From PVC group bacterium (GTDB taxonomy: Bacteria > Auribacterota > Erginobacteria > Erginobacterales > Erginobacteraceae), in NCBI GenBank assembly GCA_043804695.1, contig JAZDIV010000084.1:1-53160 (forward strand): DNA of 53,160 nucleotides, written 5' to 3'. The notes below the pieces were generated by a model that was not told the origin of the DNA, made no database searches, and was given only the letters and a program-made list of their open reading frames with translations. Both the position numbers and the translations under genes were made by a program. Shown one piece after another: positions 3,894 to 52,377 of the stretch (position 1 is its first letter; the number at the start of each line of letters is the position of its first letter).

Positions 3894-3930
3894 CTGATCA
3901 CTGATCACTGATTACTGATTACTGATTACT
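3894..3930. repeat. 7-nt periodic repeat (CTGATYA)x5, pyrimidine arm only
   Basis: ctgatca ctgatca ctgatta ctgatta ctgatta ct. Confidence 0.9.
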
Positions 3931-3970
3931 TCTTTCCCCGAGATAGCTTTTTAGCCCATAAAAACGGAAT

Positions 3971-4762
3971 ATGGCCACAATGACCAGAATCCCCGTCCTC
4001 ATGTATCACAGCGTCAGCGATTCGGAGGAGTACGGCGGATTGCCGTCCTCCTGCCGGCCGATCGGCTACCGGTTGACGGTCAGCGGCTTCGAAGATCATC
4101 TGGCCGGTTTGCGGGAGGGGGGCTGGAGCACCGTCTCCCTGGCCGGCCTCGCGGCCGCCCGGGAGGGGAGGGGAGAGCTCCCCGGGAAGCCGGTTGTGCT
4201 CACCTTTGATGACGGGTATGCCGACAACGCGCAGGCGGTTCTTCCCCGCCTGCTGGCCTGTGGTTTTCGAGCGACCTTCTTTCTCAGCGTGTCGTCTCTG
4301 GGGGAGCCGGGGATGATGGATTTCCCGGCGGCCGCGCGTCTGCTGGATGCCGGCATGGAGATCGGCTCCCACGGGATGGGCCACCGGCTCTTATCCGGCC
4401 TGGCTGAACCGGCGCTCCGCTGGGAACTGGATGAATCCCGCCGGCGCCTGGGCGATGGACTCGGGACCGGGATAGATTTCTTCTCTCTTCCCCGCGGTTT
4501 CCTGCCGCCGTCCCTTCCGGAACTGGCGCGCGCCGCCGGCTATCGCGGCCTCTGCACCTCCCGTCCGGGGTTTTATACCGGGAGAACCGACCCGTTTGAC
4601 ATCCCCCGGTTCCCGGTGAGATCCCGGTGGGGGCGCCGGGAGCTGGAGGGGGTTCTGACCGGCCGCGGATGGGACTGCCGGAGGATCATGGCCGCCGAGA
4701 AGATCCGTTCCCTGCTCAGGAGGCGTTTCCGCTTTACCGTTTTTGCCGGGCAAAAACGGTAA
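3971..4762 (+). CDS. Polysaccharide deacetylase (NodB/CE4 family)
   Basis: PVLMYH, LTFDDG, EIGSHGMGH motifs. Confidence 0.9.
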   Translation: MATMTRIPVLMYHSVSDSEEYGGLPSSCRPIGYRLTVSGFEDHLAGLREGGWSTVSLAGLAAAREGRGELPGKPVVLTFDDGYADNAQAVLPRLLACGFRATFFLSVSSLGEPGMMDFPAAARLLDAGMEIGSHGMGHRLLSGLAEPALRWELDESRRRLGDGLGTGIDFFSLPRGFLPPSLPELARAAGYRGLCTSRPGFYTGRTDPFDIPRFPVRSRWGRRELEGVLTGRGWDCRRIMAAEKIRSLLRRRFRFTVFAGQKR

Positions 4763-4803
4763 CGGGGGATTTTTACCGAGTTAAATTATGGACATGAACC
4801 TGT

Positions 4804-5673
4804 ATGGATTGTACACCGGAAGCAACGACTGACCGGCCGGGGACCGGGGCCTGGAAGAAGGCTGCTCCAGCGGTGCTCCTGGCCCTGGTTTTAATTGTTG
4901 TCTTCTGGCCGACGCTCCGCTGGATGAACGAACGGTTCTTCGAGGAGAACTCGTATTACGGCCACGGCTGGCTGATCGCGGCGGCGATCGGCTTCTTGCT
5001 TTACCAGCGCCGGGGAGCGATTACCCGTCAACCGGCTCGTCCGAGCTGGCGGGGCCTGGCGGTGGCGGCCGGGGGGCTGTTGCTTCACCTGGTCGCCCAA
5101 TTTTTCGGGGTTAACTTTCTCTCCGCGGCGTCCCTCCCCGTTGTTGTCATCGGCCTGGTCCTTGCTCACTGGGGGCCGCGCCGGGCCCGGTGTTTCATCG
5201 GTCCGCTTTTTCTCTGTGTCTTCATGATCCCGCTCCCGGGGATCTGGATCATCTCAATCGCGTTCCGTCTCAAGCTTTACTCGGCCGCCGCCGGGGTCGC
5301 CCTGGCCAGAGCCCTGGGGATTGCCATCGTCCGCAACGGGATCGAGATCTATCTCCCCGCCGCCCCGCCCGGAGAAGTGCTCACCATCGGCGATCCCTGC
5401 AGCGGCCTGAGATCACTGATCTCCTTCGGAGCTCTGGGGGGATTTTTCTTTTTTCTTTTCCCCCTTTCTCTCCTCCGGCGGTCGGCGATTTTCCTGACGG
5501 CGGTGCTTCTCGCTCCGCTCAGCAACATTCTCCGGGTGGTCGGTCTGATCGTTCTTCGTCAGACGATCGGGCCCGGGGTGCTGAGGGGCCCCTGGCACGT
5601 AATCCTGGGAGTGCTGATATTCTTTCTCTGTTTTTTCATTTTTCTTCAGGTGGTGAGATGGCTGCTCCGTTGA
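4804..5673 (+). CDS. Exosortase (EpsH/Xrt family)
   Basis: Multi-TM protein; YGHGWL, catalytic CSGLRSL, N.LRV and WH motifs. Confidence 0.9.
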   Translation: MDCTPEATTDRPGTGAWKKAAPAVLLALVLIVVFWPTLRWMNERFFEENSYYGHGWLIAAAIGFLLYQRRGAITRQPARPSWRGLAVAAGGLLLHLVAQFFGVNFLSAASLPVVVIGLVLAHWGPRRARCFIGPLFLCVFMIPLPGIWIISIAFRLKLYSAAAGVALARALGIAIVRNGIEIYLPAAPPGEVLTIGDPCSGLRSLISFGALGGFFFFLFPLSLLRRSAIFLTAVLLAPLSNILRVVGLIVLRQTIGPGVLRGPWHVILGVLIFFLCFFIFLQVVRWLLR

Positions 5674-6314
5674 CCCCGAGACGCGCGTACATCATCAGTC
5701 TGGCGCTCCTGCTGATCGGCGCCGGGCTGATCGCGCTCTTTCGGGCGGGGTCGGGTGAAAGGGGCCCGGCCGGGGGCCTGGCCCGCCTGCCGCTGCGGAT
5801 TGACGGCTGGATCGGGCGGGAGATACCGGTCCCGGATCGGGAGAGGGCCTTTCTGGGGACGGAGAACGTTATCCTCCGGCAATACCGCCAGGGGGGGGAT
5901 GCGGTCAACCTCTACATTCTGGAATGCTCATCCAACCGGGCTTCTTTTCACCCCCCCGAGTACTGCTATGTCGGCGGCCGGACCGAGATGGCGGAAAAGG
6001 GGATGAGAACGATCCGGTATGACGGGAAAACGATCACCGCCCATCGTTTCGTCTTTCTCGGGCCCCGGGGCCGAAGCCTGGTGTATTACTGGTACAGCTT
6101 CGGAGGGAGGTTTTTGGCCGACTATTACCGGCAGCAGCTGCATGTTGTCGCTTCCATCATTTTCGGCCGCCCACAGCCCGCTCTCCTGATCAGAATGTCC
6201 GTGGAGGGGACGTTTGAGATGGACAGGGGGGAGGCGGCGATCGCGGCTTTTGTCCGGGAGGCGATGCCGGCGGTGACGGAGTTCCTGCGGGAGGAGCAGG
6301 AAAGGGATCAGTGA
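5658..6314 (+). CDS. epsI: EpsI-family exosortase-associated protein
   Basis: Likely start is the ATG at 5658, overlapping the exosortase stop; LP.RIDGW.G, FHPPEYCY.G and VYYWY motifs. Confidence 0.85.
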   Translation: MAAPLTPRRAYIISLALLLIGAGLIALFRAGSGERGPAGGLARLPLRIDGWIGREIPVPDRERAFLGTENVILRQYRQGGDAVNLYILECSSNRASFHPPEYCYVGGRTEMAEKGMRTIRYDGKTITAHRFVFLGPRGRSLVYYWYSFGGRFLADYYRQQLHVVASIIFGRPQPALLIRMSVEGTFEMDRGEAAIAAFVREAMPAVTEFLREEQERDQ

Positions 6315-6442
6315 TCAGTGGTCAGCGATCGGCCATCAGTGATTCCGGGCGGTGGGCGGTCAGCAGTGTTTTAAAGGTAAGCGGCTATCGGTGAGCAGTA
6401 AGCGGTGGAATCAGCGGATACTGCTTACCGCTCACTGCTTAC
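6306..6442. repeat. 7-nt periodic inverted repeat between convergent genes
   Basis: gatcagt/ggtaagc/ggtgagc-type units, then tactgcttaccgctcactgcttac, which is the exact reverse complement of 22582..22605. Confidence 0.8.
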
Positions 6443-6446
6443 AGTT

Positions 6447-7847
6447 TTACTTCACTCCTTTCCCCCGGATCACCACCCCCACGGTCTTGAGCACGATCAG
6501 CACGTCGAGGGCCAGGCACATGTTCTCCAGATAAAAGATGTCGTAGAGCAGTTTTTCCCGGTGTTCGCCGACGGTGGCCGAGTATCCATAGGTAACCTGC
6601 GCCCAGCCCGTGATCCCCGGTTTCGCCTCCAGCCGTTCGGCGTAAAAAGGTATTTTTTCCATCAGCTCCTTCACGAAATAAGGCCGCTCCGGCCGGGGTC
6701 CGACGATGCTCATCTCATTGATGAAGACGTTGTACAGCTGCGGGAGTTCGTCCAGGCGAAACCGGCGGAGAAACCTTCCCACCGGCGTGATCCGCGGGTC
6801 GTCCGGCTCGGCGAACGACGGTCCCCGGTCTTCGCTCCCGACAAACATGGTCCGGAATTTATAGATGATGAAGGGGTCCCCGTGACGGCCGGCCCGTTCC
6901 TGCCGGTAGAGGACCGGTCCCGGGGATGTCGCTTTCACGACCGCGGCGATCAGCAGAAGAATCGGCGAGAAAGCGATCAGCCCGATGATGGCGGCGGCCG
7001 TGTCGAGGAGCCTCTTCAGGTCCTTATACCAGGACACCCGGTGGGAGATGGGGCTGATCAGGGGGACCCGCTCCGTGGGGCTGGTCGCCATCGAGCCGAT
7101 GACCGCCTCATAGAGGCTGGGGACAATCCGGAAGACGACATCGGTCTGGTTGAACTGGGTAAAGATGGCGAGGATCATCTCCTTGGGCATCTGGCTGGCA
7201 ATCACGACCTCGTCGATGACATGGCTGTCGATGATCCGGGGGATGTCCTCCACGGTCCCCAGGAGGAAGGGGTTGCCGGGATGCCGGTCGGCCTCCCGGC
7301 TCACGCTGATGAATCCGACCAGATGGCGGGAGATGTGGGCTTCCCGGAGGAGGCGGGTGGCCAGCCGCTGGGCCTCGTGGTCGGTCCCGATGATCAGCGT
7401 GTTGGAGATGAAGTAGTTCTTTCCCATGATCAGGTTGATCAACCGTTTGGTGATGAGGCGCCAGACGATGATCAGCGGGATGGTGATCAGGTAGGAGTAA
7501 AAGATCACCATCCGGGGGTAGGCGAACGCCCGGAAGAGAAAAGCGGCCACGATGATGATCAGCGTGCCGGCGGTCGTGGCCTTGATGACGCTGAGGACGA
7601 TGTCGTAGGTGGTCTTGAACTTCGGCTTGTCGTAGAGGCCGTAGATGTAAAAACAGAGGAGCCGGAGGACGAGGATCGGAAGGAGTATCTTCAGGTAGGC
7701 GGCGAAGTTCACGCGGGGAAAAGGCCCCGCCGCGCGCCCGAAACGGATGACGAACGCGGCGATATCGGCGCCGAAGACCAGGGCCGCATCCATCACCAGG
7801 GAGCCGGCGACCAGCAGGATCTTGGAGGGAAATTCAGGCTTATTCAT
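6447..7847 (-). CDS. Undecaprenyl-phosphate sugar-1-phosphate transferase (WcaJ/WbaP family priming transferase)
   Basis: N-terminal TMs, CoA-binding-like middle domain, KFRTM, DPRIT.VG.FLRR.RLDELPQ, GPRPE and PGITGWAQ motifs; start taken at MNKPEF. Confidence 0.93.
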   Translation of the reverse strand: MNKPEFPSKILLVAGSLVMDAALVFGADIAAFVIRFGRAAGPFPRVNFAAYLKILLPILVLRLLCFYIYGLYDKPKFKTTYDIVLSVIKATTAGTLIIIVAAFLFRAFAYPRMVIFYSYLITIPLIIVWRLITKRLINLIMGKNYFISNTLIIGTDHEAQRLATRLLREAHISRHLVGFISVSREADRHPGNPFLLGTVEDIPRIIDSHVIDEVVIASQMPKEMILAIFTQFNQTDVVFRIVPSLYEAVIGSMATSPTERVPLISPISHRVSWYKDLKRLLDTAAAIIGLIAFSPILLLIAAVVKATSPGPVLYRQERAGRHGDPFIIYKFRTMFVGSEDRGPSFAEPDDPRITPVGRFLRRFRLDELPQLYNVFINEMSIVGPRPERPYFVKELMEKIPFYAERLEAKPGITGWAQVTYGYSATVGEHREKLLYDIFYLENMCLALDVLIVLKTVGVVIRGKGVK

Positions 7848-8805: not shown

Positions 8806-8848
8806 GAACTCTCCTTCTCTGACGGTTCATTTATTTGATGAGAGGGGA

Positions 8849-8888: not shown

Positions 8889-8918
8889 GTACCTTTCCCC
8901 GGTAAAGTCGAGGAAAAA

Positions 8919-10046: not shown

Positions 10047-10089
10047 CCGCCTTTTTGCTGGACTATTTCGTTCTGTTATACTATGAACA

Positions 10090-13460: not shown

Positions 13461-13463
13461 AAA

Positions 13464-13512
13464 TAGGCAGTGGGCAGTGGGCAGTAGGCAGTAGGCAGTA
13501 GGCAGTAAGCAG
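13464..13512. repeat. 7-nt periodic repeat (TRRGCAG)x7
   Basis: taggcag tgggcag tgggcag taggcag taggcag taggcag taagcag. Confidence 0.92.
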
Positions 13513-13575
13513 CGAGGCCCGGGTCATTCGAGTTTTGCCATCGGGGATGTGACATTCTTTCGGATTCCGTCATTC

Positions 13576-13605
13576 TCCGCCGGAGGCGGATCCGCCTCCG
13601 GCGGA
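13576..13605. repeat. 30-bp double-hairpin element (perfect palindrome)
   Basis: tccgcc-GGA-ggcgga tccgcc-TCC-ggcgga; a related copy is at 50836..50865. Confidence 0.85.
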
Positions 13606-13664
13606 GGACCCGTCATTGTAATGATGCTTTTATCGAAATGTAATGGTAGCCGGGGCGTTATCTG

Positions 13665-14522
13665 ATGCCGCCGGAGTTGTCCATTCTGGTAATCGGATCC
13701 GGGGGCTTGCTGGGGCAGGCGTGTATGGGGGGCCTCGGTCTGCCGGGCGGGGTCGGGGGGGTGGATATTGATGCCTGCGACATCACTCAGCCGGTGCGGA
13801 TTGAGGAAACACTCGACTCTTTTCAACCCGATTGGGTCGTCAATACCGCGGCCTGCACCGATGTTGACGGATGTGAGGGAAACCGGGCCCTGGCCTGGGC
13901 GGTCAACGCCCGGGGAGCCGGGAATCTGGCCCGTGCCTGTTCCCGGCGGGATATCGGGCTGATCCAGATCAGCACTGATTTTATCTTCGACGGATGGAAC
14001 GAAGAGCCGTACCGGGAAGACGCCGCCGCCGCGCCGCTGAGCGTTTACGGGGCGAGCAAATGGGGAGGGGAAGAGGAGGTGAGAAGCGCGGGGGGGCGTC
14101 ATCTGATTGTCCGGACGTCCTGGCTTTTCGGCCGCGGGGGGAAAAACTTCCCCGACACCATTCTCAACGCCGCCCGCTCCGCCCACCTGTTGAGGGTGGT
14201 CTCTGATCAGCGGGGAGCCCCCACCTACGCCCCGGACCTGGCGGCGGCGATCGGGGAGCTGATCCGGAAGGACGCGCTTGGAACCGTCCATGTCACCAAC
14301 CGGGGCAGCTGCTCCTGGTATGAGTACGCGCTCTTTGTGCTGGCGGCAGCCGGACGGAGCACCCGGGCAATCCCCATTACCTCGGAGGAGCTGGCCCGTC
14401 CGGCCGCGCGTCCGAAATATTCCGTCCTCTCCCTGGAGCGATACGAGCGGATCACCGGCCGGAGAATGCGGCCCTGGCAGGAAACGGTCCGGGAGTATCT
14501 CAGCATGGAGCAGGGGGCATAG
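13665..14522 (+). CDS. rfbD: dTDP-4-dehydrorhamnose reductase
   Basis: G.GGLLG, N.AA.TDVD.CE, ISTDF.FDG, YG.SK..GE and DQ.G.PT motifs. Confidence 0.94.
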   Translation: MPPELSILVIGSGGLLGQACMGGLGLPGGVGGVDIDACDITQPVRIEETLDSFQPDWVVNTAACTDVDGCEGNRALAWAVNARGAGNLARACSRRDIGLIQISTDFIFDGWNEEPYREDAAAAPLSVYGASKWGGEEEVRSAGGRHLIVRTSWLFGRGGKNFPDTILNAARSAHLLRVVSDQRGAPTYAPDLAAAIGELIRKDALGTVHVTNRGSCSWYEYALFVLAAAGRSTRAIPITSEELARPAARPKYSVLSLERYERITGRRMRPWQETVREYLSMEQGA

Positions 14523-14565
14523 GGTTCAGGGTTCACGGGTCAGGGGTCAGGGTTCAGGGGTCAGG
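14521..14565. repeat. 7-nt periodic repeat (AGGGKTC)x6
   Basis: agggttc agggttc acgggtc aggggtc agggttc aggggtc. Confidence 0.9.
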
Positions 14566-15823: not shown

Positions 15824-16948
15824 ATGAATTGTATGACCTTTGATCACGCCGTCCGTCTGGAGAAAATCAGGAAATCATTCCGGAGCCGGTCTCTGGATTC
15901 CATCCTGATCTCCGGGAAGGAGAACATCTATTATCTGAGTGGTTTTACCGGCGCGGACAGCTGGCTGCTGATCGCCGGGAACCGGTCTTTCCTGATCACC
16001 GATTTCCGGTACCGCGAGCAGGCGGAGGCGGAAGTCGCGCCGATGTGTGAAACGCGGGAGCGGTCCGCCGGTTCTCTGGCGGCGGCCGTCGCCGGTCTCT
16101 GCCGGGAGCTGCGCCTGCGGAGAATCGGATGTGAAGAGCACCGGCTGAGCTGCGCCGACTTCCGGCGGCTGCAAAAGGAGCTCGGCGGCAGAGAGCTGCT
16201 GCCGGCCGGCCCCCGGGTGGAGAATCTCCGGATGATCAAGGATCCGGAGGAGATCGCTCTCCTCCGCCAGTCCGGGCGCCGGACCGCCCGTCTTCTGGGA
16301 CGGGCCGCGAAAGCGGAGGCGGAGGGATTGACCGAAACCGCCCTGGCCGCCCGGCTGTCCGCCGGGTTTCTGAAACAGGGCGGGCAGGCTGCCTTCCCGC
16401 CGATCGTGGCGGGGGGGTCCCGCAGTTCGCGGCCCCACGCCGCCCCGTCGGATTTTCCGCTTCGCGCGGGGATGATCCTCCTGGTCGATCTGGGGGGCCG
16501 CTGGGAGTTTTATAATGCCGACATGACCAGGACATTTGTTCTGGGCGATTTTCCCCGGCGGTTCAAATCCATCTACCGGGCCGTCCTCTCCGCGCAGAAA
16601 AGGGCGCTCGCGGCCATCAGGCCGGGGATGCGGGCTTCCCTGATCGATAAGTCGGCGCGGGACTTTCTGGCCCGAAAAGGGTATGGTTCCTCTTTCGGCC
16701 ACAGCCTGGGACACGGGGTGGGGCTCGAGGTCCATGAAGGCCCGGCCATCAGCGCCGCCTCCCGGGAGGTGCTGGCGGAAGGGATGGTGTTCACCGTTGA
16801 GCCCGGTGTCTATATCCCCGGATGGGGGGGTATCCGGATCGAAGACACGGTGCTGGTGACCGCCGCCGGATGCGAGATACTGACCGATTGTCCCAGGGAT
16901 CTGGGTAGCTGCTGTCTGGAAGCAAGACGGGGAAAAAGTAATCAGTAA
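15824..16948 (+). CDS. Xaa-Pro aminopeptidase (M24B)
   Basis: Creatinase-like N-terminal domain; DLG...Y.ADMTRT, HSLGHGVGLEVHE and TVEPG...G.RIED motifs. Confidence 0.93.
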   Translation: MNCMTFDHAVRLEKIRKSFRSRSLDSILISGKENIYYLSGFTGADSWLLIAGNRSFLITDFRYREQAEAEVAPMCETRERSAGSLAAAVAGLCRELRLRRIGCEEHRLSCADFRRLQKELGGRELLPAGPRVENLRMIKDPEEIALLRQSGRRTARLLGRAAKAEAEGLTETALAARLSAGFLKQGGQAAFPPIVAGGSRSSRPHAAPSDFPLRAGMILLVDLGGRWEFYNADMTRTFVLGDFPRRFKSIYRAVLSAQKRALAAIRPGMRASLIDKSARDFLARKGYGSSFGHSLGHGVGLEVHEGPAISAASREVLAEGMVFTVEPGVYIPGWGGIRIEDTVLVTAAGCEILTDCPRDLGSCCLEARRGKSNQ

Positions 16949-17117
16949 TCGGTAATTGGTGATCAGTGCTTCGCTTGACGCGAAATCATAATTACGGAAT
17001 ACGGATTACGGGTTGCCGATCACGAATCGCGATGACCGGCCACTGATTACCGATTACTGATTACCGATTACCGATTACTGATTATTGGTCACAGAGTACC
17101 GCTCACTGCCAACTGCC
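16937..17117. repeat. 7-nt periodic inverted repeat
   Basis: agtaatc agtaatc ggtaatt ggtgatc, then a long ttaccga/ttactga/tcactg run ending before the pfk RBS. Confidence 0.9.
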
Positions 17118-19029: not shown

Positions 19030-19520
19030 GGGAAAAGATAATAACCCCCGCGGAGCTGGTTCCGCTCCTGGCCCGCCGGAAGCGGGAAGGGAAGCGGATA
19101 GTCTTCACCAACGGGTGCTTCGATTTGCTGCACATCGGGCACGTCCGGTATCTCGGGAAGGCAAAAGCAGAGGGAGACATCCTGGTCCTCGGTCTCAACA
19201 GCGACCGTTCGGTGCGGGGGCTGAAAGGAGCGGGCCGTCCCCTCGTCCCCGAACAGGAGCGGGCCGAACTGCTGGCCGCCCTCTCGATGATTGACTACGT
19301 CGTCATCTTTGATGAGCCGACGCCGCTCGGGCTGATCAAAGAGATCGCCCCCGATGTCCTGGTCAAGGGGGGCGACTGGAAACGGGAGGATATCGCGGGG
19401 GGAAAGGAGGTCAAGGCCTCCGGCGGCCGGGTGGTGGTGGTGCCCCTGATCCCCGGCCGGTCGACCAGCAATCTGATCGGGGAAATCATGCAGAGGTCCC
19501 GGGCCGGGGTTGAGATTTAA
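19026..19520 (+). CDS. rfaE2: D-glycero-beta-D-manno-heptose-1-phosphate adenylyltransferase (stand-alone HldE domain II)
   Basis: VFTNGCFDLLH.GHV.YL, GLNSD.SV..LKG..RP, LVKGGD and STS motifs. Confidence 0.93.
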   Translation: MREKIITPAELVPLLARRKREGKRIVFTNGCFDLLHIGHVRYLGKAKAEGDILVLGLNSDRSVRGLKGAGRPLVPEQERAELLAALSMIDYVVIFDEPTPLGLIKEIAPDVLVKGGDWKREDIAGGKEVKASGGRVVVVPLIPGRSTSNLIGEIMQRSRAGVEI

Positions 19521-19551
19521 CTCCCGCTTCGCGATCAATTCGCCGGATTCA

Positions 19552-21300
19552 ATGATCAGGAAGATCCCGGTCAAAATGGAATATCTGGTGGCGCTGCTGG
19601 CTCTCGCGGCCGGTCTTTATTCTCAGTCATCGGCGATAGTCAATGCCTACGTGATTAACGATGATGCCATGCAGCATATTTACTGGATGCGCCAGTTCCA
19701 GAGCCCCGGGTTATTTAAAGATGATCTCCTGACGGAAAATGCCCGGCACTGGCTGCCCTGGGGATTAATTTTTTTCTATTACGCGGGTTCTTTTCTCATT
19801 GATCCGGTGATGATCAGCAAACTGGCGCCTTTATTCCTGTTCCCCCTTTCGTCGGCGTTTGCATACGGACTGGTAAAGCGTATCACCGGCAGCCGGTATA
19901 TCAGTTTCCTGGCTGCCGTTATCTTTATCTTCACGGCGACATTTTTTCAATCAATGATCGGCGGTCATCCCCGCGCCTTCGGATTTCCGCTTTTGATCAT
20001 GTTTCTTTATTATCTGGTCACAAAGCGGTATCCCGCCGCCGCGGTTGTGATGATAGCGCAAAGTCTGTTTTATCCGGTGGTGTTCCTGCTGTCGTCACTG
20101 ACCTGTCTGTGTACTTTTATTCAGAGAAAAGATAAAAAAATCATTATTGATCGCTCGCGGACCAGGGCGCTGTTTTTCGGGGGGGCGATCCTGGCCGGGT
20201 GTTCTCTTCTGATCGGTGAATATGCGGTTTCGGATAATCCCCGGCTGGGGTCTTTGATTACCCGGGAGGCTGCCGCCGGCCGACCGGAAAATTATGAAAA
20301 GGGGCGTTTCCGGATAATGCCGATCAGCCCGTTATTCGAGCAGGTAAAATATAATTTAAAAGAGAGCATTTTCGGATACCGGATGATCGAATATCTTAAG
20401 GAACGTGCCGTGATGTCCGGCGTGGTGCGGAAATATGAAGAGATTGTCGAACCCCGGAGACCGGGATTGTCGGTTACAGATGAGATAGCCCTGGTCATAT
20501 TCATCTTCTTGCTGGCGGCGGGGATCGGGAAAAAAATCCGCTTTCCTCCGGAAATATATTATCTCCTCTTCTCGGGCATTGTGCTCTACTGGTTATCGAG
20601 CCTGGTATTGTTCAAGTTATACCGGCCCGAGCGATACGTGGAGTATTCGTTCCGGATAGCCGGGTTGATATTTTTTTCGGTCATCAGCGGCCGCCTGATC
20701 GAGGGGATCAGACAGCCAAAAGTCAAAACATTTTTCCGGGCAGTGCCGATTGTTCTGGCTTGCTTGTTTTTTCGGGCCAACCGGGGCCTGGCTTTGACGG
20801 ATCTTTCTTCCAACCGGGAACTGTATGAATATCTGCGCGGCCTGCCTGAAGAGGCGATGATCGCCGCCCATCCCTGTCTGGCCGACGGCGTCCCGCTCTT
20901 CAGTCGGAAAAAAGTATTTATTAACTTTGAGCTGTCCAACCCGTGGTATGGCGGATACTGGGAGACAATCAGGAAACGGACTTTGGCTTTTTTTGACGCC
21001 TACTATTCCGAAAACCCGGCGGCGGTCTATCAGTTTTGCCGGCAGAACGAGATAGATTATGTTATGGTGGACGAAAAACATTTCCAGAAGGATTATCTTG
21101 ATGATGGGAAGGTATATTTTGAGCCTTTCCAGGGTTACATCTCCCGTCTGGTGAAGGAGAGGAAGAATTTCATCCTTCCCCGGATGGAGGAAAAAGACCT
21201 GCTCTTTCACAAAAACGGAATCACGGTGATCCACCGGGATGCTTTTGGAGATCGGCATGACTTTAATCGGAGAAGCGAAAAAGGGCAACTCGACAGCTGA
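19552..21300 (+). CDS. Multi-pass membrane protein, GT-C-fold glycosyltransferase-like; start uncertain
   Basis: Many TMs; DD..QH acidic motif after TM1; soluble C-terminal domain ending IDYVMVD; visibly AT-richer than its flanks. Confidence 0.65.
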   Translation: MIRKIPVKMEYLVALLALAAGLYSQSSAIVNAYVINDDAMQHIYWMRQFQSPGLFKDDLLTENARHWLPWGLIFFYYAGSFLIDPVMISKLAPLFLFPLSSAFAYGLVKRITGSRYISFLAAVIFIFTATFFQSMIGGHPRAFGFPLLIMFLYYLVTKRYPAAAVVMIAQSLFYPVVFLLSSLTCLCTFIQRKDKKIIIDRSRTRALFFGGAILAGCSLLIGEYAVSDNPRLGSLITREAAAGRPENYEKGRFRIMPISPLFEQVKYNLKESIFGYRMIEYLKERAVMSGVVRKYEEIVEPRRPGLSVTDEIALVIFIFLLAAGIGKKIRFPPEIYYLLFSGIVLYWLSSLVLFKLYRPERYVEYSFRIAGLIFFSVISGRLIEGIRQPKVKTFFRAVPIVLACLFFRANRGLALTDLSSNRELYEYLRGLPEEAMIAAHPCLADGVPLFSRKKVFINFELSNPWYGGYWETIRKRTLAFFDAYYSENPAAVYQFCRQNEIDYVMVDEKHFQKDYLDDGKVYFEPFQGYISRLVKERKNFILPRMEEKDLLFHKNGITVIHRDAFGDRHDFNRRSEKGQLDS

Positions 21301-22580: not shown

Positions 22581-22643
22581 GGTAAGCAGTGAGCGGTAAG
22601 CAGTAATCAGTGAGCGGTCGCTGCCGGGGCACCGTTTACTGTT
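22581..22643. repeat. 7-nt periodic inverted repeat
   Basis: ggtaagc agtgagc ggtaagc agtaatc agtgagc ... caccgtt tactgtt. Confidence 0.85.
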
Positions 22644-26187: not shown

Positions 26188-28412
26188 TCAGGATATCTTT
26201 GAAAAATACCCTTCCCGGCGCGCGGTTCCCGGGTAAGCGGCGCCGGCGGGCGGGGGGCGGAAAGGGGGACCGTCCGCCCGGGAGCGGGGTCTCCGGGAGA
26301 TGGATACTGGGGGCGGCCGTTTTCGCGGCGAGCGTTTTGATCATTTCCTGGCGGGGGATGCCGCTGAGCGTCCCCGTCATCGGCCAGACCTCCGAGCGGG
26401 ATGTGGTGGCGGCGTGCGGCTTCCTTTACCCGGACCAGATCAAGACCGCGCAGGCCCGCGCGGCCGCGGAAGACCGGCAGCCGGTCGCCTATGCCGTCGT
26501 CCCGGCCGTCCCGGAGGAGAAGAGGGAGCGCGTCAAGGATTTTTTCGGCGGCTTATCGGGCGTCGGTCCCGCCGCGCCGATCGGGCTTTTGTTTTCCCCC
26601 CCCCGCCGGATCCTCTCGATTTTCCTGAAGACCGTTCTCTCGCCGGATGATGAAGAAAGACTGCTCCTCCTTCTGGAAAAGTCGTATCGGAACGGAGTCA
26701 TCTCCCCGGATATCAAGCGCACGCTGCTCAACACCCGTCAGGAGCAGGTGGTGCTGGTCGGCCGATCGGCGGGTGCCGCGGAGGAGGTTTTTCTGGCCGC
26801 CATCCCCGCCGTCGACGCCGCCCGGCAGGAAGCGGTCAGGGAGATCGAGGAAAAGTCCCCCTCCCGGCGCCCCTTCCGGGCGGAGCTGGAAGAGCTGGTC
26901 TCTTTCCTGATCCAGCCCGATCTGGAGTTTGATCCGGGCCAGACCGAAGAGCTTCGGGCGGCGGCGCTCCGGAGCGTTCCGGTCGTCATGACCGCGGTCG
27001 AAAAAGGGGACACGATCATCCGGCAGGGGGAGAAGGTGCGGCCGCTTCATGTCCAGAAATTCCGCTCTTATCAGGAAGAGTTCTACCGTCTCCAGCCGCC
27101 GATCGCTCTTTTTTATTATATGTTCGGCACCGGCCTCCTGGTTCTTCTCCTCGCCCTGATCACCGCGTATTTCCTGGACCGCTATCACCGGGCGGTCAGC
27201 CGGAGCGGCTCGCGGCTGCTCATGATCTGCGCCGTGGTGGTGCTGATCCTGGTCTTTGCCCGCGGGCTCCGCCAGGTCGTCTGGATTCTTCCCCCCGGCC
27301 TGATGGAGGGCGTCCGCTTTGTCTCGCCGGTCGCGATCGGGTCCCTGCTCCTCTGTCTCCTGTTCGAGGCGCGGGTGGCGATTTTTTTCCCCCTGATCCT
27401 TTCTTTCCTGACCGCGCTGATTCTGGGGGGGGATCTCGGATATATGCTGGTCGGCGTTATCGGGGGGACCGCGGGCGTCGTCGGCCTGAGCGGCGCCCGC
27501 CGGCGGATCGATCTGTTCCGGGCGGGGGTGGTGGCGGCGGCGGCCGGGGCCCTGACGGTTGTCGCCCTCGGGATCTCCCGGGGGCTGCCGCCGCTGGTGT
27601 TCTTCAGCCAGGGGGCGGGGGCGGCGGCGGCGGGGATCCTCTCCGCTTTTATCGCCCTGGTCGTCCTGGGGCTCTTCGAATGGATTTTCCGGGTCTCATC
27701 CGATATCGAGCTTCTGGAGTTGTCCGACCTCAACCACCCCCTTCTCCGGAGGTTGATGGTCTGCGCCCCCGGGACCTACCATCACAGCCTGATGGTGGCC
27801 ACGCTGGCGGAAGGCGCCGCCGAGGAGGTCGGGGCCAACTCCCTCCTGGCCCGGGCCAGCGCCTACTTTCATGATGTCGGGAAGATCGGCAAGCCGGAGT
27901 ACTTTTCCGAGAATGAAATCTCGGAGACCAGCCGGCACGATGACTTGATCCCGAGCATGAGCAGCCTGATCCTGATCTCCCACGTCAAGGAGGGGGCGGC
28001 CCTGGCCCGCCAGCACAAGCTGGACCGGCGGATTGTCGCCAACATCGAGCAGCATCACGGGACCAGCCGGATCTCTTATTTCTACGACCGGGCCGAGCGG
28101 GCCCGGCAGCCGAATGCCGGCGTTCCGGAAGAAAATTATCGCTATCCCGGCCCGAAGCCGGCCAGCCGCGAAGCGGCGATCATCATGCTCGCCGATGCCG
28201 CCGAGGCGGCGTCGGTATCGCTCGACCGTCCCACCCCCGCCCGGTTGGAAGCCCTGATCAAGAACATCGTCCGGGAGCGGCTGGTGGACGGCCAGTTTGA
28301 TGAATGCCGCCTGACCCTGGCCGACCTGAAGATAATTGAAGAAAGTTTTGTCCGCAGCCTCTCCGCCCGGTATCATACCCGCGTCAAGTATCCGGAGGGG
28401 AACGGGGAATAG
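26184..28412 (+). CDS. 7TM-HD phosphohydrolase (PgpH-like, putative c-di-AMP phosphodiesterase)
   Basis: Extracellular domain, 7 TMs, APGTYHHS, HDVGK, QHHGT, YPGPKP and LAD motifs; conserved position between phoH and ybeY. Confidence 0.9.
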   Translation: MIRISLKNTLPGARFPGKRRRRAGGGKGDRPPGSGVSGRWILGAAVFAASVLIISWRGMPLSVPVIGQTSERDVVAACGFLYPDQIKTAQARAAAEDRQPVAYAVVPAVPEEKRERVKDFFGGLSGVGPAAPIGLLFSPPRRILSIFLKTVLSPDDEERLLLLLEKSYRNGVISPDIKRTLLNTRQEQVVLVGRSAGAAEEVFLAAIPAVDAARQEAVREIEEKSPSRRPFRAELEELVSFLIQPDLEFDPGQTEELRAAALRSVPVVMTAVEKGDTIIRQGEKVRPLHVQKFRSYQEEFYRLQPPIALFYYMFGTGLLVLLLALITAYFLDRYHRAVSRSGSRLLMICAVVVLILVFARGLRQVVWILPPGLMEGVRFVSPVAIGSLLLCLLFEARVAIFFPLILSFLTALILGGDLGYMLVGVIGGTAGVVGLSGARRRIDLFRAGVVAAAAGALTVVALGISRGLPPLVFFSQGAGAAAAGILSAFIALVVLGLFEWIFRVSSDIELLELSDLNHPLLRRLMVCAPGTYHHSLMVATLAEGAAEEVGANSLLARASAYFHDVGKIGKPEYFSENEISETSRHDDLIPSMSSLILISHVKEGAALARQHKLDRRIVANIEQHHGTSRISYFYDRAERARQPNAGVPEENYRYPGPKPASREAAIIMLADAAEAASVSLDRPTPARLEALIKNIVRERLVDGQFDECRLTLADLKIIEESFVRSLSARYHTRVKYPEGNGE

Positions 28413-28470
28413 GGAATAGGGAATAGGGAATGGGGAATAGGGAATGGCGCAATCCAATCCCTACTCCCCA
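28398..28470. repeat. 7-nt periodic repeat (GGGAAYR)x7 with short complementary arm
   Basis: gggaacg gggaata x3 gggaatg gggaata gggaatg ... tccctactcccca; supplies the upstream TAG stop. Confidence 0.9.
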
Positions 28471-29654: not shown

Positions 29655-29830
29655 AAAGTTACGACCGAAGGGAGCTAATTTACTGCTTCGGAATGTCAAT
29701 AATTATTAGCCACCAAGACACCAAGGCACCAAGAAAAGCGGGGAAAGGGCAAAATACTCACCTTATTTGCTTTTTTCTTAGTGTCTTGGTGTCTTAGTGG
29801 CAAAAGTTGCGAGCGCAGCGAGCTAATTTA
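29655..29830. repeat. 8-nt periodic inverted repeat (29709..29801) bracketed by two copies of an AAAGTT...GAGCTAATTTA motif
   Basis: gccaccaagacaccaaggcaccaagaaaa pairs 26/29 with ttttcttagtgtcttggtgtcttagtggc; motif copies at 29655..29682 and 29803..29830. Confidence 0.85.
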
Positions 29831-29843
29831 TAAGGAAGATCAT

Positions 29844-33572: not shown

Positions 33573-33781
33573 TGACAAGAACTGAATGACGGATGACGAA
33601 AAAATGACACGAAAGGCAGTAAGCGGTAAACGGTAAGCGGTAAGCGGTAATCAGTGAGCGGTAGCCTGTCCGCTGTTTACTGATCACTGATCACTGATCA
33701 CCGATTACTGATCACCGATTACTGATCACTGATTACTCGGTGTTTTTTTAACCACCGGTTATCAATCACCGTTTACCGTTT
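33570..33781. repeat. Compound periodic repeat: AATGAC-type units then a 7-nt inverted pair
   Basis: agtaagc ggtaaac ggtaagc ggtaagc ggtaatc agtgagc ... tcactga tcactga tcaccga ttactga tcaccga ttactga tcactga. Confidence 0.9.
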
Positions 33782-38337: not shown

Positions 38338-39660
38338 ATGTCTATTTTCAAGGCCTATGACATCCGGGGGGTTGTCCCGGAGGAGATCAACGAGGACATC
38401 GCCTACCGGATCGGCAGCGCGTTGGCCCGGTTCCTGAAAGCCCGTTCCATCGTCGCCGGCCGTGACATGAGGATCAGCTCCCCCGACCTCGCCGCCGCCG
38501 CCCGGAAGGGGATCCGGGACGTCGGGGCGGACGTGGTCGATATCGGCCTCTGCTCGACCCCGGCCTGCTACTTCGCCGTCGCTCGGGGAGGGTACGGGGG
38601 GGCGCTGATGGTGACCGCCTCCCACAACCCTTCCCGTTACAACGGCTTCAAGCTCTGCCGGGAGCAGGCCATCCCCCTCAGCTATGAAACCGGGGTCGAG
38701 GAGATCGAGATCCTCTGCGGGCAGGGAAAAACGGCCAGTGCCGTTCGCGCGGGCCGGGAGATCGAGCGGGACATCACGACGGACTACGTCGCCCACATCC
38801 TGAACTTCGCCCAGTACATCCGGCCGCTCACGGTCGCCGTCGACGCCGGCAACGGGATGGCGGGGAAGTATCTCCCCCTCATCTTCGAAAAGCTCCCCTG
38901 CCGGCTGATCCCCCTCTACCTGGAGCCGGACGGGAGCTTCCCCCACCACGATGCCGATCCACTCCGGGAAAAGAACTTGGCCGACCTGAAAAAGCTGGTG
39001 GTGAAGGAGGGCGCCGACCTGGGGGCGGCCTTTGACGGGGACGCTGACCGGGTGGCGTTCGTTGACGAGAAGGGCCGGACCATCGCCAACGACCTGACCA
39101 CGGCCCTGATCGCCCGGGAGACTCTGGACCGCTGGCCCGGCGCGACGATCATCTACGATCTGCGGTCATCCCGGGTGGTCCCGGAGGAGGTCGAGAAGGC
39201 GGGGGGGCGGGCGCTGGAGTCGCGGGTGGGGCACTCCTACATCAAGGAGCATATGCGGGAGCAGAACGCGGTCTTCGGCGGCGAGCTCTCCGGGCATTAT
39301 TACTTCCGGGAAAACTTCTACGCCGACAACGCCGAGATTGCCCTGATCAAGATCCTCAATTTAATCAGCTCCCGGCAGGAGCCGCTCTCCCGGCTCGTCG
39401 CTCCGCTCCGCCGCTACGCCGCCACCGGCGAGATCAACTTCCGGGTCGGGGACAAGGACGCGAAGATCGAGGAGCTGGCGGAAGTGTTCTCCGACGGCGA
39501 GGTTTATTTTCTGGACGGCGTCTCCGTCCGCTACCCGGACTGGTGGTTCAATGTCCGCAAGTCCAACACCGAACCGTTCCTGCGCCTCAATCTGGAAGCC
39601 CGGACCCCGGAGCTGATGGAAAAATCCAGGGAGAGGGTGGAAGCCGTTATTAGCAGATAA
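38338..39660 (+). CDS. Phosphomannomutase/phosphoglucomutase
   Basis: IFKAYDIRG, TASHNP, FDGDADR, GELSGH and R.SNTEP motifs. Confidence 0.95.
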   Translation: MSIFKAYDIRGVVPEEINEDIAYRIGSALARFLKARSIVAGRDMRISSPDLAAAARKGIRDVGADVVDIGLCSTPACYFAVARGGYGGALMVTASHNPSRYNGFKLCREQAIPLSYETGVEEIEILCGQGKTASAVRAGREIERDITTDYVAHILNFAQYIRPLTVAVDAGNGMAGKYLPLIFEKLPCRLIPLYLEPDGSFPHHDADPLREKNLADLKKLVVKEGADLGAAFDGDADRVAFVDEKGRTIANDLTTALIARETLDRWPGATIIYDLRSSRVVPEEVEKAGGRALESRVGHSYIKEHMREQNAVFGGELSGHYYFRENFYADNAEIALIKILNLISSRQEPLSRLVAPLRRYAATGEINFRVGDKDAKIEELAEVFSDGEVYFLDGVSVRYPDWWFNVRKSNTEPFLRLNLEARTPELMEKSRERVEAVISR

Positions 39661-39752
39661 GTGATCGGTAATCAGTAATCAGTAATCGGTGATCGGTTGG
39701 CCTGTTCCTGGTGTTTTTTTACCGTTTACTGATAACCGATCACTGATTACTG
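39660..39752. repeat. 7-nt periodic inverted repeat filling the pmm-uppP spacer
   Basis: agtgatc ggtaatc agtaatc agtaatc ggtgatc ... ttaccgt ttactga taaccga tcactga ttactg. Confidence 0.9.
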
Positions 39753-42738: not shown

Positions 42739-42807
42739 CTTCACCTCCTTCCGGCATTCTCTTGGCCGCCGGTGTGAGTTTATCTTGCCGCTTCGGAATT
42801 TCAAAAA

Positions 42808-42925
42808 CGGTAACGGTAAGGGTAACGATGCCCGTATCGGTGAGGGTAACGGTAACGGCCGCCTCGGTGGCGTACGTAACCGTAGCCGACAGACGAAACG
42901 GGCCGAGTCACCGTAACCGTCACCC
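42808..42925. repeat. 6-nt periodic inverted repeat
   Basis: cggtaa cggtaa gggtaa ... gggtaa cggtaa, then ccgtaa ccgtca-type units. Confidence 0.7.
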
Positions 42926-42981
42926 AGTTGCGCCGGAGGCGCTAAGTTCCTGTACGGAGAGTGTACAACACTGTCAAAAAA

Positions 42982-44118: not shown

Positions 44119-44270
44119 TAATGAAGAAACCCGAATGACGAAACTCGAAAGAATGACGAAAACAGAATGACGAAACCCACCTGCCAAAACCTCGGCCGGC
44201 GGCTCATCGTGCTGGCCTGTTCGCCGCTCCGGCCGCTTTCGGATTTCGGGTTTCGGTATTCGGATTTTAG
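44119..44270. repeat. AATGACGAA / TTTCGG periodic inverted repeat
   Basis: gaatgacgaa three times, then tttcgga tttcggg tttcggt attcgga. Confidence 0.7.
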
Positions 44271-47411: not shown

Positions 47412-47458
47412 CCTGGATTATTCATACATCGGGGTAATGGTATCAGTTCCCAGCCCGT

Positions 47459-48268: not shown

Positions 48269-48334
48269 TAAGTGGCATGAAATAACGCACCTTTTTATAC
48301 TTTTTACAGGTAAAAAGTAGCGAAGCTCAAATCC

Positions 48335-50608: not shown

Positions 50609-50669
50609 GGGCGAGCCCCCTTTTCGCTTTCTTGGACAGGACGATTAAGGGAAAAATACGGCATAATTA

Positions 50670-50908
50670 GACCCTGTTCGAAAATGTTTTCGAGCAGGAA
50701 ATCCTAAATTCTACTATCGAAATCCTAAATAAATCCAAAATCCAAATGACCAAATATCCAAATATCGCGATGCTTGGCGAAAGTGTTTTGAATTTGTGAT
50801 TTTGGTCATTTGAGATTATTTAGGATTTAGTATTTTCCGCCAGAGGCGGATCAGCCTTTGGCTGAAGATATTAGGATTTGAGAGCTTATGAGCTTTTCGA
50901 GTAAGCTC
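50670..50908. mobile_element. MITE-like element with imperfect TIRs and TA flanks, carrying a nested periodic repeat and a double hairpin
   Basis: TA|gaccctgttcgaaaa ... ttttcgagtaagctc|TA; non-coding; both ends recur at 1272..1312. Confidence 0.6.
50836..50865. repeat. 30-bp double-hairpin element
   Basis: tccgcc-AGA-ggcgga tcagcc-TTT-ggctga. Confidence 0.85.
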
Positions 50909-50919
50909 TAATTAATCAT

Positions 50920-50945
50920 GTAGGGGCGAACCCCCGTGTTCGCCC
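50920..50945 (+). repeat. GTAG-type REP sequence, with a degenerate copy at 50605..50627
   Basis: GTAG followed by the gggcgaac...gttcgccc hairpin. Confidence 0.7.
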
Positions 50946-50966
50946 GATCGGAATCATCACATTGCC

Positions 50967-51458
50967 ATGGATGAGGTCACCATACAGTTTCAACTGAACG
51001 GGGAAGAAGTCAGCGTTACCGCGCCGCCCTTCTTCACCCTCCTCCGGCTGCTCCGGGAACGGCTCGGCCTGACCGGGGCCAAGCCCGGCTGCGAGCGGGG
51101 GGAGTGCGGGGCCTGCACCGTTCTTCTCGACGGGGAGCCGGTCGCCTCCTGCCTGGTCCTCGCTCCCCAGGTGGAAGGGAGGGCGGTCGAGACGATTGAG
51201 GGGATTTCCGACGGGGAACGTCTTCATCCGCTCCAGGAAGCCTTCATTGAGGAGAGCGCGGTTCAGTGTGGCTACTGCATACCGGGGATGATCATGTCCG
51301 CCAAAGCGCTTCTGGACCGGAACCTCAACCCCGCCCGGGACGAGATCAAGCGGGCCTTATCGGGGAACCTCTGCCGCTGCACCGGCTACACCAAGATCAT
51401 CCAGGCGGTGGAGGCGGCCGCCGCGAAGATCAGGGATCAGGGAGGAGGGGCGGCGTGA
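50967..51458 (+). CDS. [2Fe-2S] small subunit (CoxS/XdhC-type)
   Basis: GC..GECGACTV..DG...SC, QCGYC.PG and NLCRCTGY motifs. Confidence 0.95.
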   Translation: MDEVTIQFQLNGEEVSVTAPPFFTLLRLLRERLGLTGAKPGCERGECGACTVLLDGEPVASCLVLAPQVEGRAVETIEGISDGERLHPLQEAFIEESAVQCGYCIPGMIMSAKALLDRNLNPARDEIKRALSGNLCRCTGYTKIIQAVEAAAAKIRDQGGGAA

Positions 51459-51460
51459 CC

Positions 51461-52315
51461 ATGCGATTCGATTATCTTCGGGCCGGGAGCGTCGAAGAGG
51501 CCCTGGAGCTGCTGCGGGAGAACGATGGGGACTGCCGGGTCCTGGCGGGGGGGACCGATCTGCTGGTGATGATCCAGGAAAAGCTTGTCTCCCCCCGGGC
51601 CGTGCTTGACATCAGCGGCCTGGAGGAGCTGAAAGGGATAGAAGAGAGCGGCGGCCGGATCCGGGTGGGGGCGCTGGCTTCCCACGCCCGGATCGCCGGT
51701 TCCGCGGTGCTGGAGAAGAAGGCGGCTCCCCTGGTCCAAAGCTGCGCCGAGGTCGGCTCTCCCCAGATCCGCGCCCTCGGCACCATCGGGGGCAACCTGG
51801 TGATGGCGTCCCCCTCGGGGGATGCCATCCCCGCGCTCTTTGTCCTGGGAGCGTCGGTCATTCTGAAAAGCAGCCGGGGGGAACGCGCGGTTCCGATCGA
51901 GGAGTTTTTTACGGGGGTGAAGAGGTCTGTCCGCCGTCCGGATGAGCTTTTGACCGCCGTTGTCTTCCCGGCGCCGGCACCGTCGGATCGCGGCTTTTTC
52001 AAGAAGCTGGGGCAGCGGAAAGCCCTCGCCATCTCCAAGGTCTCGACCGCCGCGCTCCTCTCCTTCCGGGGGGGGGGTGTCGAAAAGATCCGGGTCGCCC
52101 TGGGTGCGGTCGCTCCCACCGTCATCCGCGCTCCCCGGACCGAGTCGTTCCTCGCCGGTCATAAGCTCACGGCGGACCCGATCGAAGAGGCCGCCCGGAT
52201 CTGCGCGGAGGAGTCCCGGGCCATTACCGACCTTCGTTCCAGCGCGGTTTACCGGAACCGGATGGCCGGCCTCCTCCTGGCCCGCGGGCTGGAAGAACTG
52301 GTGGAAGAGAACTGA
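51461..52315 (+). CDS. FAD-binding medium subunit (CoxM/XdhB-type)
   Basis: LAGGTDL, QIR..GTIGGNL..ASP.GD and K...RKA motifs. Confidence 0.93.
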   Translation: MRFDYLRAGSVEEALELLRENDGDCRVLAGGTDLLVMIQEKLVSPRAVLDISGLEELKGIEESGGRIRVGALASHARIAGSAVLEKKAAPLVQSCAEVGSPQIRALGTIGGNLVMASPSGDAIPALFVLGASVILKSSRGERAVPIEEFFTGVKRSVRRPDELLTAVVFPAPAPSDRGFFKKLGQRKALAISKVSTAALLSFRGGGVEKIRVALGAVAPTVIRAPRTESFLAGHKLTADPIEEAARICAEESRAITDLRSSAVYRNRMAGLLLARGLEELVEEN

Positions 52316-52347
52316 GCGGCTTGCGCCCCCGAGTATTTTTTTATCAT

Positions 52348-52377
52348 CCGACCGATCGGTCCGATCCGACCGATCCC
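52348..52377. repeat. 9-nt periodic repeat (CCGATC core)
   Basis: ccga ccgatcggt ccgatccga ccgatcc. Confidence 0.6.

Follow-up and report, generated by a model that had tools for sequence, protein, structure and literature searches.

Tandem short-unit arrays in the gene spacers of an Erginobacteraceae contig: probable gene-less members of a hairpin cassette family

What are the degenerate repeats of 6-9 nucleotides (nt) that occupy so many gene spacers of a single bacterial contig, and how did they come to lie there? The question is raised by contig JAZDIV010000084.1 (C84) of a PVC group bacterium of the family Erginobacteraceae (assembly GCA_043804695.1; 2.97 Mb in 155 contigs), which was analysed over its entire 53,160 nt and is referred to below as the window. 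A preliminary description of this DNA listed 15 spacers holding such repeats, mostly as a purine-rich arm followed by its complement, and proposed that they are vacated or receptive sites of a cassette system. The arrays probably (roughly 0.6) represent the arms, in places one remaining arm, of small selfish 'foldback' hairpin cassettes that form a family, of which the window has gene-less members only. Copies with and without a gene draw on the same unit families, whole gene-less copies lie scattered over many contigs, and related genomes differ at the same spacers in having an array, none, or one of a different unit. The best reading of the window sites is that they are non-autonomous copies and half-copies of cassettes resembling the intervening sequences (IVSs) of 23S rRNA, with local slippage in addition. 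The preliminary description was half right: the sites belong to a cassette family, yet they are not demonstrably emptied or waiting.

Gene-bearing cassettes, gene-less copies and their dispersal

The genome contains one GxxExxY gene (TIGR04256, PF13366). The four-helix-bundle family (TIGR02436, PF05635) has nine matches, and six of these are frames of 120-150 residues, one of them with three stop codons. Leaving out three weak partial matches inside longer frames, we inspected the GxxExxY gene and the six frames. According to the preliminary description similar arms flank genes of both kinds in other genomes, and as judged by eye all seven genes do lie between inverted short-unit arms, with the purine or A-rich arm first in every case. 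Both arms were called by Tandem Repeats Finder at five of the seven; at the other two, short or degenerate arms are visible in the sequence. Every one of the seven cassette units is found again on 10-38 other contigs, in 12-83 gene-less arrays. Within the window, 42805-42952 shares its arms with a four-helix-bundle cassette on contig C121, 29711-29799 shares its unit with the GxxExxY cassette on C127, 50698-50835 shares an AAATCC-type unit with a four-helix-bundle cassette on C83, and 28398-28470 shares its unit with a cassette on C101. A PF05635 gene is present in the loop at none of the 15 window sites and at six other loci of the genome. With regard to arm length around cargo genes, the upstream arm was longer in 23 cases and the downstream arm in 19 (p = 0.14), and no tendency to a longer upstream arm was seen.

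Four elements of the window are whole copies of gene-less elements that are dispersed through the genome, with 38-202 high-scoring segment pairs (HSPs) on 19-72 contigs (Table 1) and 13-34 near-full gene-less copies each, all with conserved loops. Two of the dispersed families have polar end modules, namely a 17-nt AT-rich module on one side and, on the other, a GC hairpin with a GNA loop that ends in TAATTTA. The latter module flanks both sides of many copies, which may reflect stacking of elements. The gene-less copies keep their conserved loops and end modules, indicating that they spread as gene-less units.

Four relatives, one of the same genus (G001) and three of the same family, are collinear with the window and were compared with it. 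At seven of the 15 sites (13461, 14523, 15088, 22538, 29631, 42805 and 52316) at least one relative has an array-free spacer of 0-37 nt; at the 42805 site this spacer measures 37 nt in G001. At 13461, 22538 and 29631, G001 or G005 bear GGAGTGATG- or GCGATCCCGAT-type hairpins with units unlike those of the window. Where the relatives do have arrays their units are often others, and these spacers have thus been filled more than once and independently. The preliminary description had argued for dispersal rather than slippage. The multiple gene-less copies and the presence or absence of arrays at the same spacers in relatives bear out the first part, whereas slippage evidently contributes as well, as judged by the super-periods of 14 and 21 nt that Tandem Repeats Finder reports for window arrays. 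The idea of vacated or receptive sites fared worse, as no cargo gene was found at any of the 15 sites in the syntenic regions of the four relatives. The comparison of orthologous spacers that had been suggested was run, and these regions contained no four-helix-bundle gene in the four relatives and no GxxExxY gene in the three searched for it (all but G001). Outside the window, G002, G005 and G006 have a GxxExxY cassette between rnfG and rnfE, where the present genome has only a gene-less 10-mer array of a different unit. The 580-nt glyS-ppdK spacer of G001 was considered as a cassette and rejected, as it represents an AT-rich C-terminal extension of glyS of about 130 residues (L002 937-3420).

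The association of arms and cargo is also found far outside this family. In a cross-phylum sample with one genome per species, a single PF05635 protein query gave 80 loci from Acidobacteriota, Bacteroidota, Gemmatimonadota, Saccharibacteria, Elusimicrobiota, Chloroflexota, Actinomycetota, Planctomycetota, Gammaproteobacteria and a Nostoc, and at 73 of them each flank extended over 300 nt. Complementary tandem arrays lay on both sides of the gene at 46 of the 73 loci (period 7 in 42, period 8 in 4), with the purine arm first at 40 of the 46, and were seen at 0 of 66 loci when the flanks were moved 600 nt outward. At locus L040, in a Lysobacterales genome, the PF05635 gene lies between accB and accC with CGGGAAT and ATTCCCC arrays on either side. 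Among 61 sampled genomes of the window's own phylum, 39 have four-helix-bundle genes and 36 have GxxExxY genes. Complementary arms were found at 19 of 27 four-helix-bundle loci (control 1/24), 17 of them with period 7, 14 purine-first and 5 not, and at 13 of 28 GxxExxY loci (control 1/27), 11 with period 9 and two with period 8, all 13 purine-first. Within this phylum the array period follows the cargo, being 7 for four-helix-bundle genes (17/19) and 8-9 for GxxExxY genes (13/13); since the relatives are not independent, we do not claim this link as a general rule. With regard to viral contigs, a search for GxxExxY gave one weak match of 17 residues, which was not used.

Loops of a different content were also observed. 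The loops of five array pairs (Table 1) contain a second palindromic module, CATTGCGAG...GAAGCAATC and its complement, which occurs in spacers of relatives as well, including G006. At locus L020 (G000:C70:900-2200) a CACCAAGA arm pair in the usual order has about 400 nt between its arms, and within these lies a tRNA gene (647-732, minus strand) in place of a cargo protein gene.

Arrays of the window and the order of their arms

Short-period arrays were found at all 15 places listed in the preliminary description. At 12 of them the call by Tandem Repeats Finder begins within 2 nt of the start given there, and the remaining three starts (15128, 33570 and 50698) lie 20-50 nt upstream of called arrays (15149, 33619 and 50720), in degenerate units. 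Every unit named (RGTRAKC, TRRGCAG, AGGGKTC, GGGAATR, CACCAAGR and AATGACGAA) occurs in the window, which has a GC content of 58%. That the arrays are mostly inverted pairs holds in part: the window has ten pairs, but six of the listed sites (3894, 6306, 13464, 14521, 22582 and 52346) are single arrays without a significant inverted partner. Nine of the hairpins outscore every shuffle and the tenth (44120-44267) is weak. Their folding z-scores range from -4.1 to -8.2, and they have the long-stem terminal inverted repeats that characterise an IVS. A 24-mer reported as common to two sites is an exact match, although 6419-6442 is the reverse complement of 22582-22605 and not a direct copy. All sites lie between protein genes and none in a 23S or 16S rRNA helix; the genes beside them are housekeeping genes (glyS, ppdK, phosphomannomutase, uppP, rmlB-like, rmlD, Xaa-Pro peptidase, phosphofructokinase and recO). 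Overlap with the upstream stop codon, which had been described as frequent, was seen at 14521, 28398 and 39660.

Table 1. Repeat features of the window and, in the last row, loops elsewhere in the genome that hold a nested palindromic module. kcal/mol values are folding energies.
Position	Strand	Feature	Context and support
3840-3875		Small hairpin and TAATTTA module	Precedes array 3894..3930
3894..3930		Single pyrimidine-type array, CTGATYA ×5.3	Upstream of gene starting at 3971; no significant partner
6306..6343		Purine-type array, rotation of AGTGATC, ×5.4	Overlaps end of DUF3485 gene 5190-6314
6368..6446		Hairpin with GGTAAGC-type arms	Convergent spacer; inverted-repeat score 36, shuffle maximum 25; 24-mer in second arm
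13464..13512		Single purine-type array, TRGGCAG ×7	3 nt past stop of dTDP-glucose dehydratase gene
14521..14565		Single purine-type array, AGGGKTC ×6.4, 21-nt super-period	Begins on rmlD stop codon
15138..15290		Dispersed gene-less element, whole copy; 8-nt AGGAGATC-type arm and its complement around a GC loop	38 HSPs on 19 contigs, 22 copies; -73.4 kcal/mol, z -8.2
16937..17084		Hairpin; AGTAATC-type arm, 78-nt loop, GATTACY arm	First arm overlaps end of peptidase gene; second before pfk
22582..22615		Purine-type array, GTAAGCA ×4.9	Partner of only about 1.5 units (22632-22643); inverted repeat not above shuffles
28398..28470		Hairpin; GGGAATR ×7 arm and short complementary arm	Arm contains stop of HDIG-domain gene
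29658..29835	+	Dispersed gene-less element, whole copy, polar end modules; CACCAAGR ×3 arm 29711-29734, complement 29776-29799	202 HSPs on 72 contigs; z -7.6
33582..33737		Degenerate AATGACGRA units, then hairpin with GGTAAGC ×6.4 and ACTGATC ×8.4 arms	glyS-ppdK spacer; -46.4 (+ strand) and -46.3 (- strand) kcal/mol; z -5.4
39657..39752		Hairpin; RGTRATC ×5 arm	pmm-uppP spacer; begins on stop codon; complementary arm before uppP; z -6.3
42805..42952	+	Dispersed gene-less element, whole copy; GGTAACG-type arms and end modules	31 copies listed
44120..44267		Weak pair; AATGACGAA-type array and TTTCGGA array, partly complementary	Score 28, below shuffle maximum 37
50665..50910		Dispersed gene-less element, whole copy; AAATCCW arms, the A-rich one leading	111 HSPs on 67 contigs
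52346..52376		9-nt array, ATCCGACCG ×3.4, self-complementary through GATC	Before next gene
C114:36900-37360, C143:11590-12040, C147:15940-16330, C56:26590-26930, C127:50900-51200 (all G000)		Loops with nested CATTGCGAG...GAAGCAATC module	

Enrichment over shuffled DNA was checked genome-wide. Intergenic DNA (672,724 nt) holds 236, 115 and 78 arrays of at least three copies for periods 7, 8 and 9, respectively, whereas each of three dinucleotide-preserving shuffles yielded none at these periods. In the whole genome, arrays of at least three copies and a score of at least 40 number 201, 102 and 83 for periods 7, 8 and 9, 29 for period 6 and 8 for period 10. Intergenic arrays far outnumber coding ones (240 against 30 at period 7, 118 against 9 at period 8, and 78 against 17 at period 9), so that these tandem units of 7-9 nt show the strongly intergenic placement of the published heptamer-repeat class. 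This one genome carries 190 different canonical units. A reverse-complement partner lies within 1.5 kb of 286 of the 730 arrays, and the median number of units per arm is 4.1 and 4.3.

The more purine-rich arm comes first in all ten pairs of the window. When the suggested count of arm polarity was extended to the genome, 119 of 125 pairs less than 200 nt apart were purine-first, two were pyrimidine-first and four were ties. The statement that the purine arm always leads is thus correct in general; the AAATCC family is A-rich rather than purine-rich, and its AAATCCT unit accounts for the four ties. As the purine-first order is identical when read on either strand, it represents a real handedness. 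Pairs 550-1500 nt apart show the opposite order in 12 of 16 cases and enclose ordinary genes, indicating that they are the outer arms of two neighbouring hairpins. Single arrays follow a position rule: the purine type lies by the upstream stop codon in 65 cases against 13, the pyrimidine type in 20 against 28 (Fisher p = 2e-6). Overlap with stop codons extends beyond the window, 21 of the 78 purine-type single arrays lying within 3 nt of an upstream stop. The purine- or G-rich strand after a stop, its complement before the next start, and convergent pairs are found here as in the Xanthomonas GGGAATC repeats, which obey the same position rule in the passages compared (Rehm et al. 2015, PMC4692102).

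Three further features of the window were noted. A GC-rich palindromic module (CCGCCGGAGGCGGATC-type; 13575-13606 and 50838-50868) is dispersed, with a coverage of at least 15 HSPs elsewhere in the genome. At the contig end (53035-53160) a 67-nt unit is repeated 1.9 times, and paired changes in its GC stem between the copies preserve complementarity. A 596-residue open reading frame (ORF) without a Pfam family lies at 19510-21300 and is missing from the collinear regions of the four relatives, which have 74-266 nt there.

The proposed cassette and its rivals

On the selfish-cassette reading, a cassette would consist of two inverted arrays of about four units of 7-9 nt, purine-rich arm first, around a loop. 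In a full member the loop would hold one small gene, encoding either a PF05635 four-helix-bundle protein (Avd-like, 'S23p') or a PF13366 GxxExxY protein of nuclease fold. The design would be that of the ORF-bearing IVSs of 23S rRNA, lodged here between protein genes. Gene-less copies may spread by factors supplied in trans, and the arms would grow, shrink and diverge through replication slippage. Copies would survive only where they are harmless, that is in spacers, and would hence accumulate between the stop codon of one gene and the start of the next. Once transcribed they are predicted to fold into very stable stems, of a kind that is cut by RNase III elsewhere and that probably persists here. 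As a tentative extension, which we hold to be rather doubtful, the cargo proteins may be mobility or maintenance factors, each reading its own arm units and mobilising gene-less copies in trans.

RNase III was sought as the enzyme that processes such stems. With the NCBIfam model TIGR02191 there was no match among 14 genomes from the window's order (completeness 75-97%), against matches in 15 of 17 from other families of the phylum, and the Pfam RNase III domains PF14622 and PF00636 gave nothing in this genome or in four close relatives. Since the enzyme was not found in the order, the stems are probably not processed classically here, and cleavage by it cannot be what keeps the elements. Loss of RNase III as the cause of hairpin abundance was unsupported, because array density in the ppdK region is not neatly related to the enzyme: 1.64 arrays per 10 kb were counted in genomes with RNase III (none in 6 of 11, 8.5 in G030) and about 2.6 in genomes of the order without it. 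The 23S rRNA gene of this genome (C48:34463-37531, minus strand) has a hairpin of about 40 nt, made of tandem 9-nt units, at the helix-45 position (36231-36268), the classical insertion site of IVSs.

Several observations weigh against the selfish-cassette reading. No transposase, target duplication or moving copy was seen. None of six Y1-transposase-like matches in the genome is bracketed by inverted arrays, unlike the arrangement expected of REPINs (paired repetitive extragenic palindromic, REP, sequences) and their RAYT (REP-associated tyrosine transposase) partners. The sole reverse transcriptase is of a truncated group-II type and has no flanking arrays, so that a telomerase-like origin of the arms finds no support here. 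For RGTRAKC-type loci the arms alone are common, while loops and unit orders are unique, which suggests that some loci may originate locally. Selfish spread alone explains neither the purine-first handedness nor the position rule of single arrays. Elements of the two end-module families are co-oriented with their flanking genes (24 against 4 and 10 against 1; bare hairpin family, 4 against 5), which could mean function. Finally, placement was judged from our own crude gene calls, with a coding fraction of 77%.

Some of these points would fit host-selected RNA elements, that is intercistronic stem-loops that stabilise the mRNA upstream of them, keep cistrons apart or adjust translation of the gene that follows, in the manner of the REP stem-loops of Escherichia coli operons. 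The stems are very stable (mean -46 kcal/mol at 92 loci, apart from the z-scores of the window), and within operon spacers the hairpins lie at a median distance of 38 nt from the preceding stop and 55 nt from the following start. The position rule of single arrays relative to transcription and the co-orientation of end-module elements point the same way. Moreover, translational regulation was proposed by the authors for the TAACTGA repeats of Beggiatoaceae, Cyanobacteria and Bacteroidetes, which end directly ahead of start codons and for whose spread 'no mechanism' was given in the passages seen (MacGregor 2015, PMC4679880). Nevertheless, we regard this explanation as unlikely. The antisense strand folds as well as the sense strand, which was stabler at 49 loci and less stable at 43 (p = 0.42), and strand-specific RNA selection was therefore rejected. 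The 125 hairpin loci comprise 92 in tandem, 13 in convergent and 10 in divergent spacers and 10 at contig ends, and their spread roughly tracks the spacers available (1191, 173 and 190, respectively): the divergent and convergent shares, 10 and 13 of 115, are close to the background of 190 and 173 of 1554 spacers. The same housekeeping spacers measure just 0-37 nt in relatives. Intrinsic terminators were rejected, as a run of at least four T follows just 23 of the 92 stems and 10 hairpins lie in divergent spacers; no Rfam family matches the arrays.

A related possibility, which we judge to be improbable, is that the arrays are binding sites for a DNA- or RNA-binding protein (a nucleoid protein, a regulator or the cargo protein) or that they form G-quadruplexes. 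About four units per arm would suit a binding site, as would the period that follows the cargo in this phylum. Binding by integration host factor (IHF) or HU was proposed for the tandem octa-, nona- and heptanucleotide sites that occur in pairs, one on each strand, in Geobacter metallireducens, named class 1-3 'global regulator sites' (Aklujkar et al. 2009, PMC2700814, in the passages seen). The Xanthomonas GGGAATC repeats, with 70-75 convergent pairs per genome, and the Nostoc GGGGAYT repeats were described as quadruplex-forming, the former forming quadruplexes in vitro, in a report that also cites the Calothrix heptanucleotide repeats (PMC4692102, as far as its passages compared here go). 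On the other hand, 190 canonical units in one genome are far beyond what host regulators would need, and quadruplexes were rejected as a general explanation, since only 18 of 467 arrays genome-wide and 2 of 14 in the window have the required minimum of four G-tracts, each of three G or more. All-frame stop codons were rejected as the reason for units of 7-8 nt, since stops in all three frames were present in 147 of 414 arrays against 228 of 414 with shuffled units.

The view taken in the preliminary description, that the loop is an integration site which captures small genes or has lost them, is in our judgement more improbable still. It could account for the same arms occurring with and without a gene, for loops that hold other things (the five wide pairs with the palindromic module and the C70 pair with the tRNA gene) and for the rnfG-rnfE spacer, which has a cassette in three relatives and a gene-less array here. 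However, the same arms with and without a gene were never found at an orthologous position, and the rnf arrays have different units. The window sites lack a cargo gene in all syntenic regions compared, and gene-less copies keep conserved loops of their own. No integron integrase came over cut-off: seven tyrosine-recombinase matches all fell below it, as in all 14 control genomes, and the sites are scattered with no contiguous array.

Pure local slippage, a microsatellite-like growth in unconstrained DNA with no dispersal, would explain the higher-order periods and the unique unit orders of RGTRAKC loci and has a parallel in the copy number differences between Coxiella strains (PMC4990558), but as the sole explanation it is already contradicted, and hardly credible, given whole elements with identical loops on 19-72 contigs, complementary arm pairs of fixed handedness and the same design around two specific gene families across phyla with near-zero controls.

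Known repeats and what the cassettes would mean

The elements resemble the ORF-bearing 23S rRNA IVSs of Coxiella burnetii and Leptospira in that a long stem of inverted repeats encloses a small PF05635 gene. In the passages seen of the Coxiella report, the IVS carries an S23p (PF05635) ORF and, at its 5' end, two to three tandem GACAGAT heptamers, purine-rich and variable in number from strain to strain; they are part of a 28-bp terminal stem that RNase III cuts in vitro, and the IVS is considered selfish and horizontally acquired (Warrier et al. 2016, PMC4990558). Unlike 23S IVSs, the window copies lie between protein genes and are gene-less, they number in the hundreds per genome, many of them with additional polar end modules, and the lineage seems to be without RNase III, the enzyme that excises IVSs.

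The repeats as such are already known from Calothrix, Geobacter, Xanthomonas/Nostoc, Beggiatoaceae and Coxiella. Judging from the passages compared, the window arrays share with those of the first four groups an intergenic location, about 3-5 units per site, opposite-strand pairs at variable distance, and the G-rich strand after a stop or its complement before a start. Some units are close to published ones as well: GGGAATR is found at 28398, and ACTGATT is one base from a rotation of TAACTGA. The published readings as regulator sites, quadruplexes or translational signals differ from ours in that the text passages of these reports that were compared do not mention a link to PF05635 or GxxExxY. 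Literature searches on GxxExxY, on PF05635 and on both together with repeats found no paper making the cassette link. Apparently this link is not in print, nor are the statistics of handedness, the repeated filling of orthologous spacers or the failure to find RNase III in the order.

Other classes of mobile or repeated DNA are similar in part. REP sequences, their mosaics (bacterial interspersed mosaic elements, BIMEs) and REPINs are abundant intergenic hairpins that stack with other modules, with gene-less copies far outnumbering coding ones, as here. The arms described here are, in contrast to those of REPIN/RAYT systems, tandem arrays of short units from many unrelated families, and the associated genes are not Y1 transposases. 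Like MITEs (miniature transposable elements with inverted repeats), the elements are multi-copy, non-coding and bounded by inverted repeats, and like foldback elements they have long inverted arms of short tandem sub-repeats, most copies being without coding capacity. Neither a target-site duplication nor a parent transposase was identified here, and full members differ in carrying a gene of 110-150 codons. With integron attC cassettes they share small promoter-poor genes bounded by imperfect hairpin sites, and the stacking of units. However, the arms stand on both sides of the gene, and the copies are scattered through operons rather than collected in one array served by an integrase.

Unrelated bacteria have yielded intergenic repeats of 7-9 nt on at least five occasions, and every report came with a local explanation of its own, a quirk of rRNA spacers included. 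If the cargo proteins do mobilise the gene-less copies, the cassettes would form a class of bacterial transposable element that is very widespread and has no known transposase. The 23S IVSs and the cyanobacterial, Xanthomonas, Geobacter and Beggiatoaceae repeats would then have one explanation, and the insertion chemistry would have left its mark in the purine-first handedness. A separate lead, on the tolerance of double-stranded RNA, comes from an entire order that is rich in long transcribed hairpins and has apparently lost RNase III. PF05635 and GxxExxY are among the commonest 'hypothetical' small gene families of bacteria, and to our knowledge neither has a known role. If the arrays are of one cassette kind, annotation pipelines could mask them as mobile DNA rather than predict regulators from them, and the role of the cargo proteins becomes a testable question, namely whether they bind or cut their own arms.

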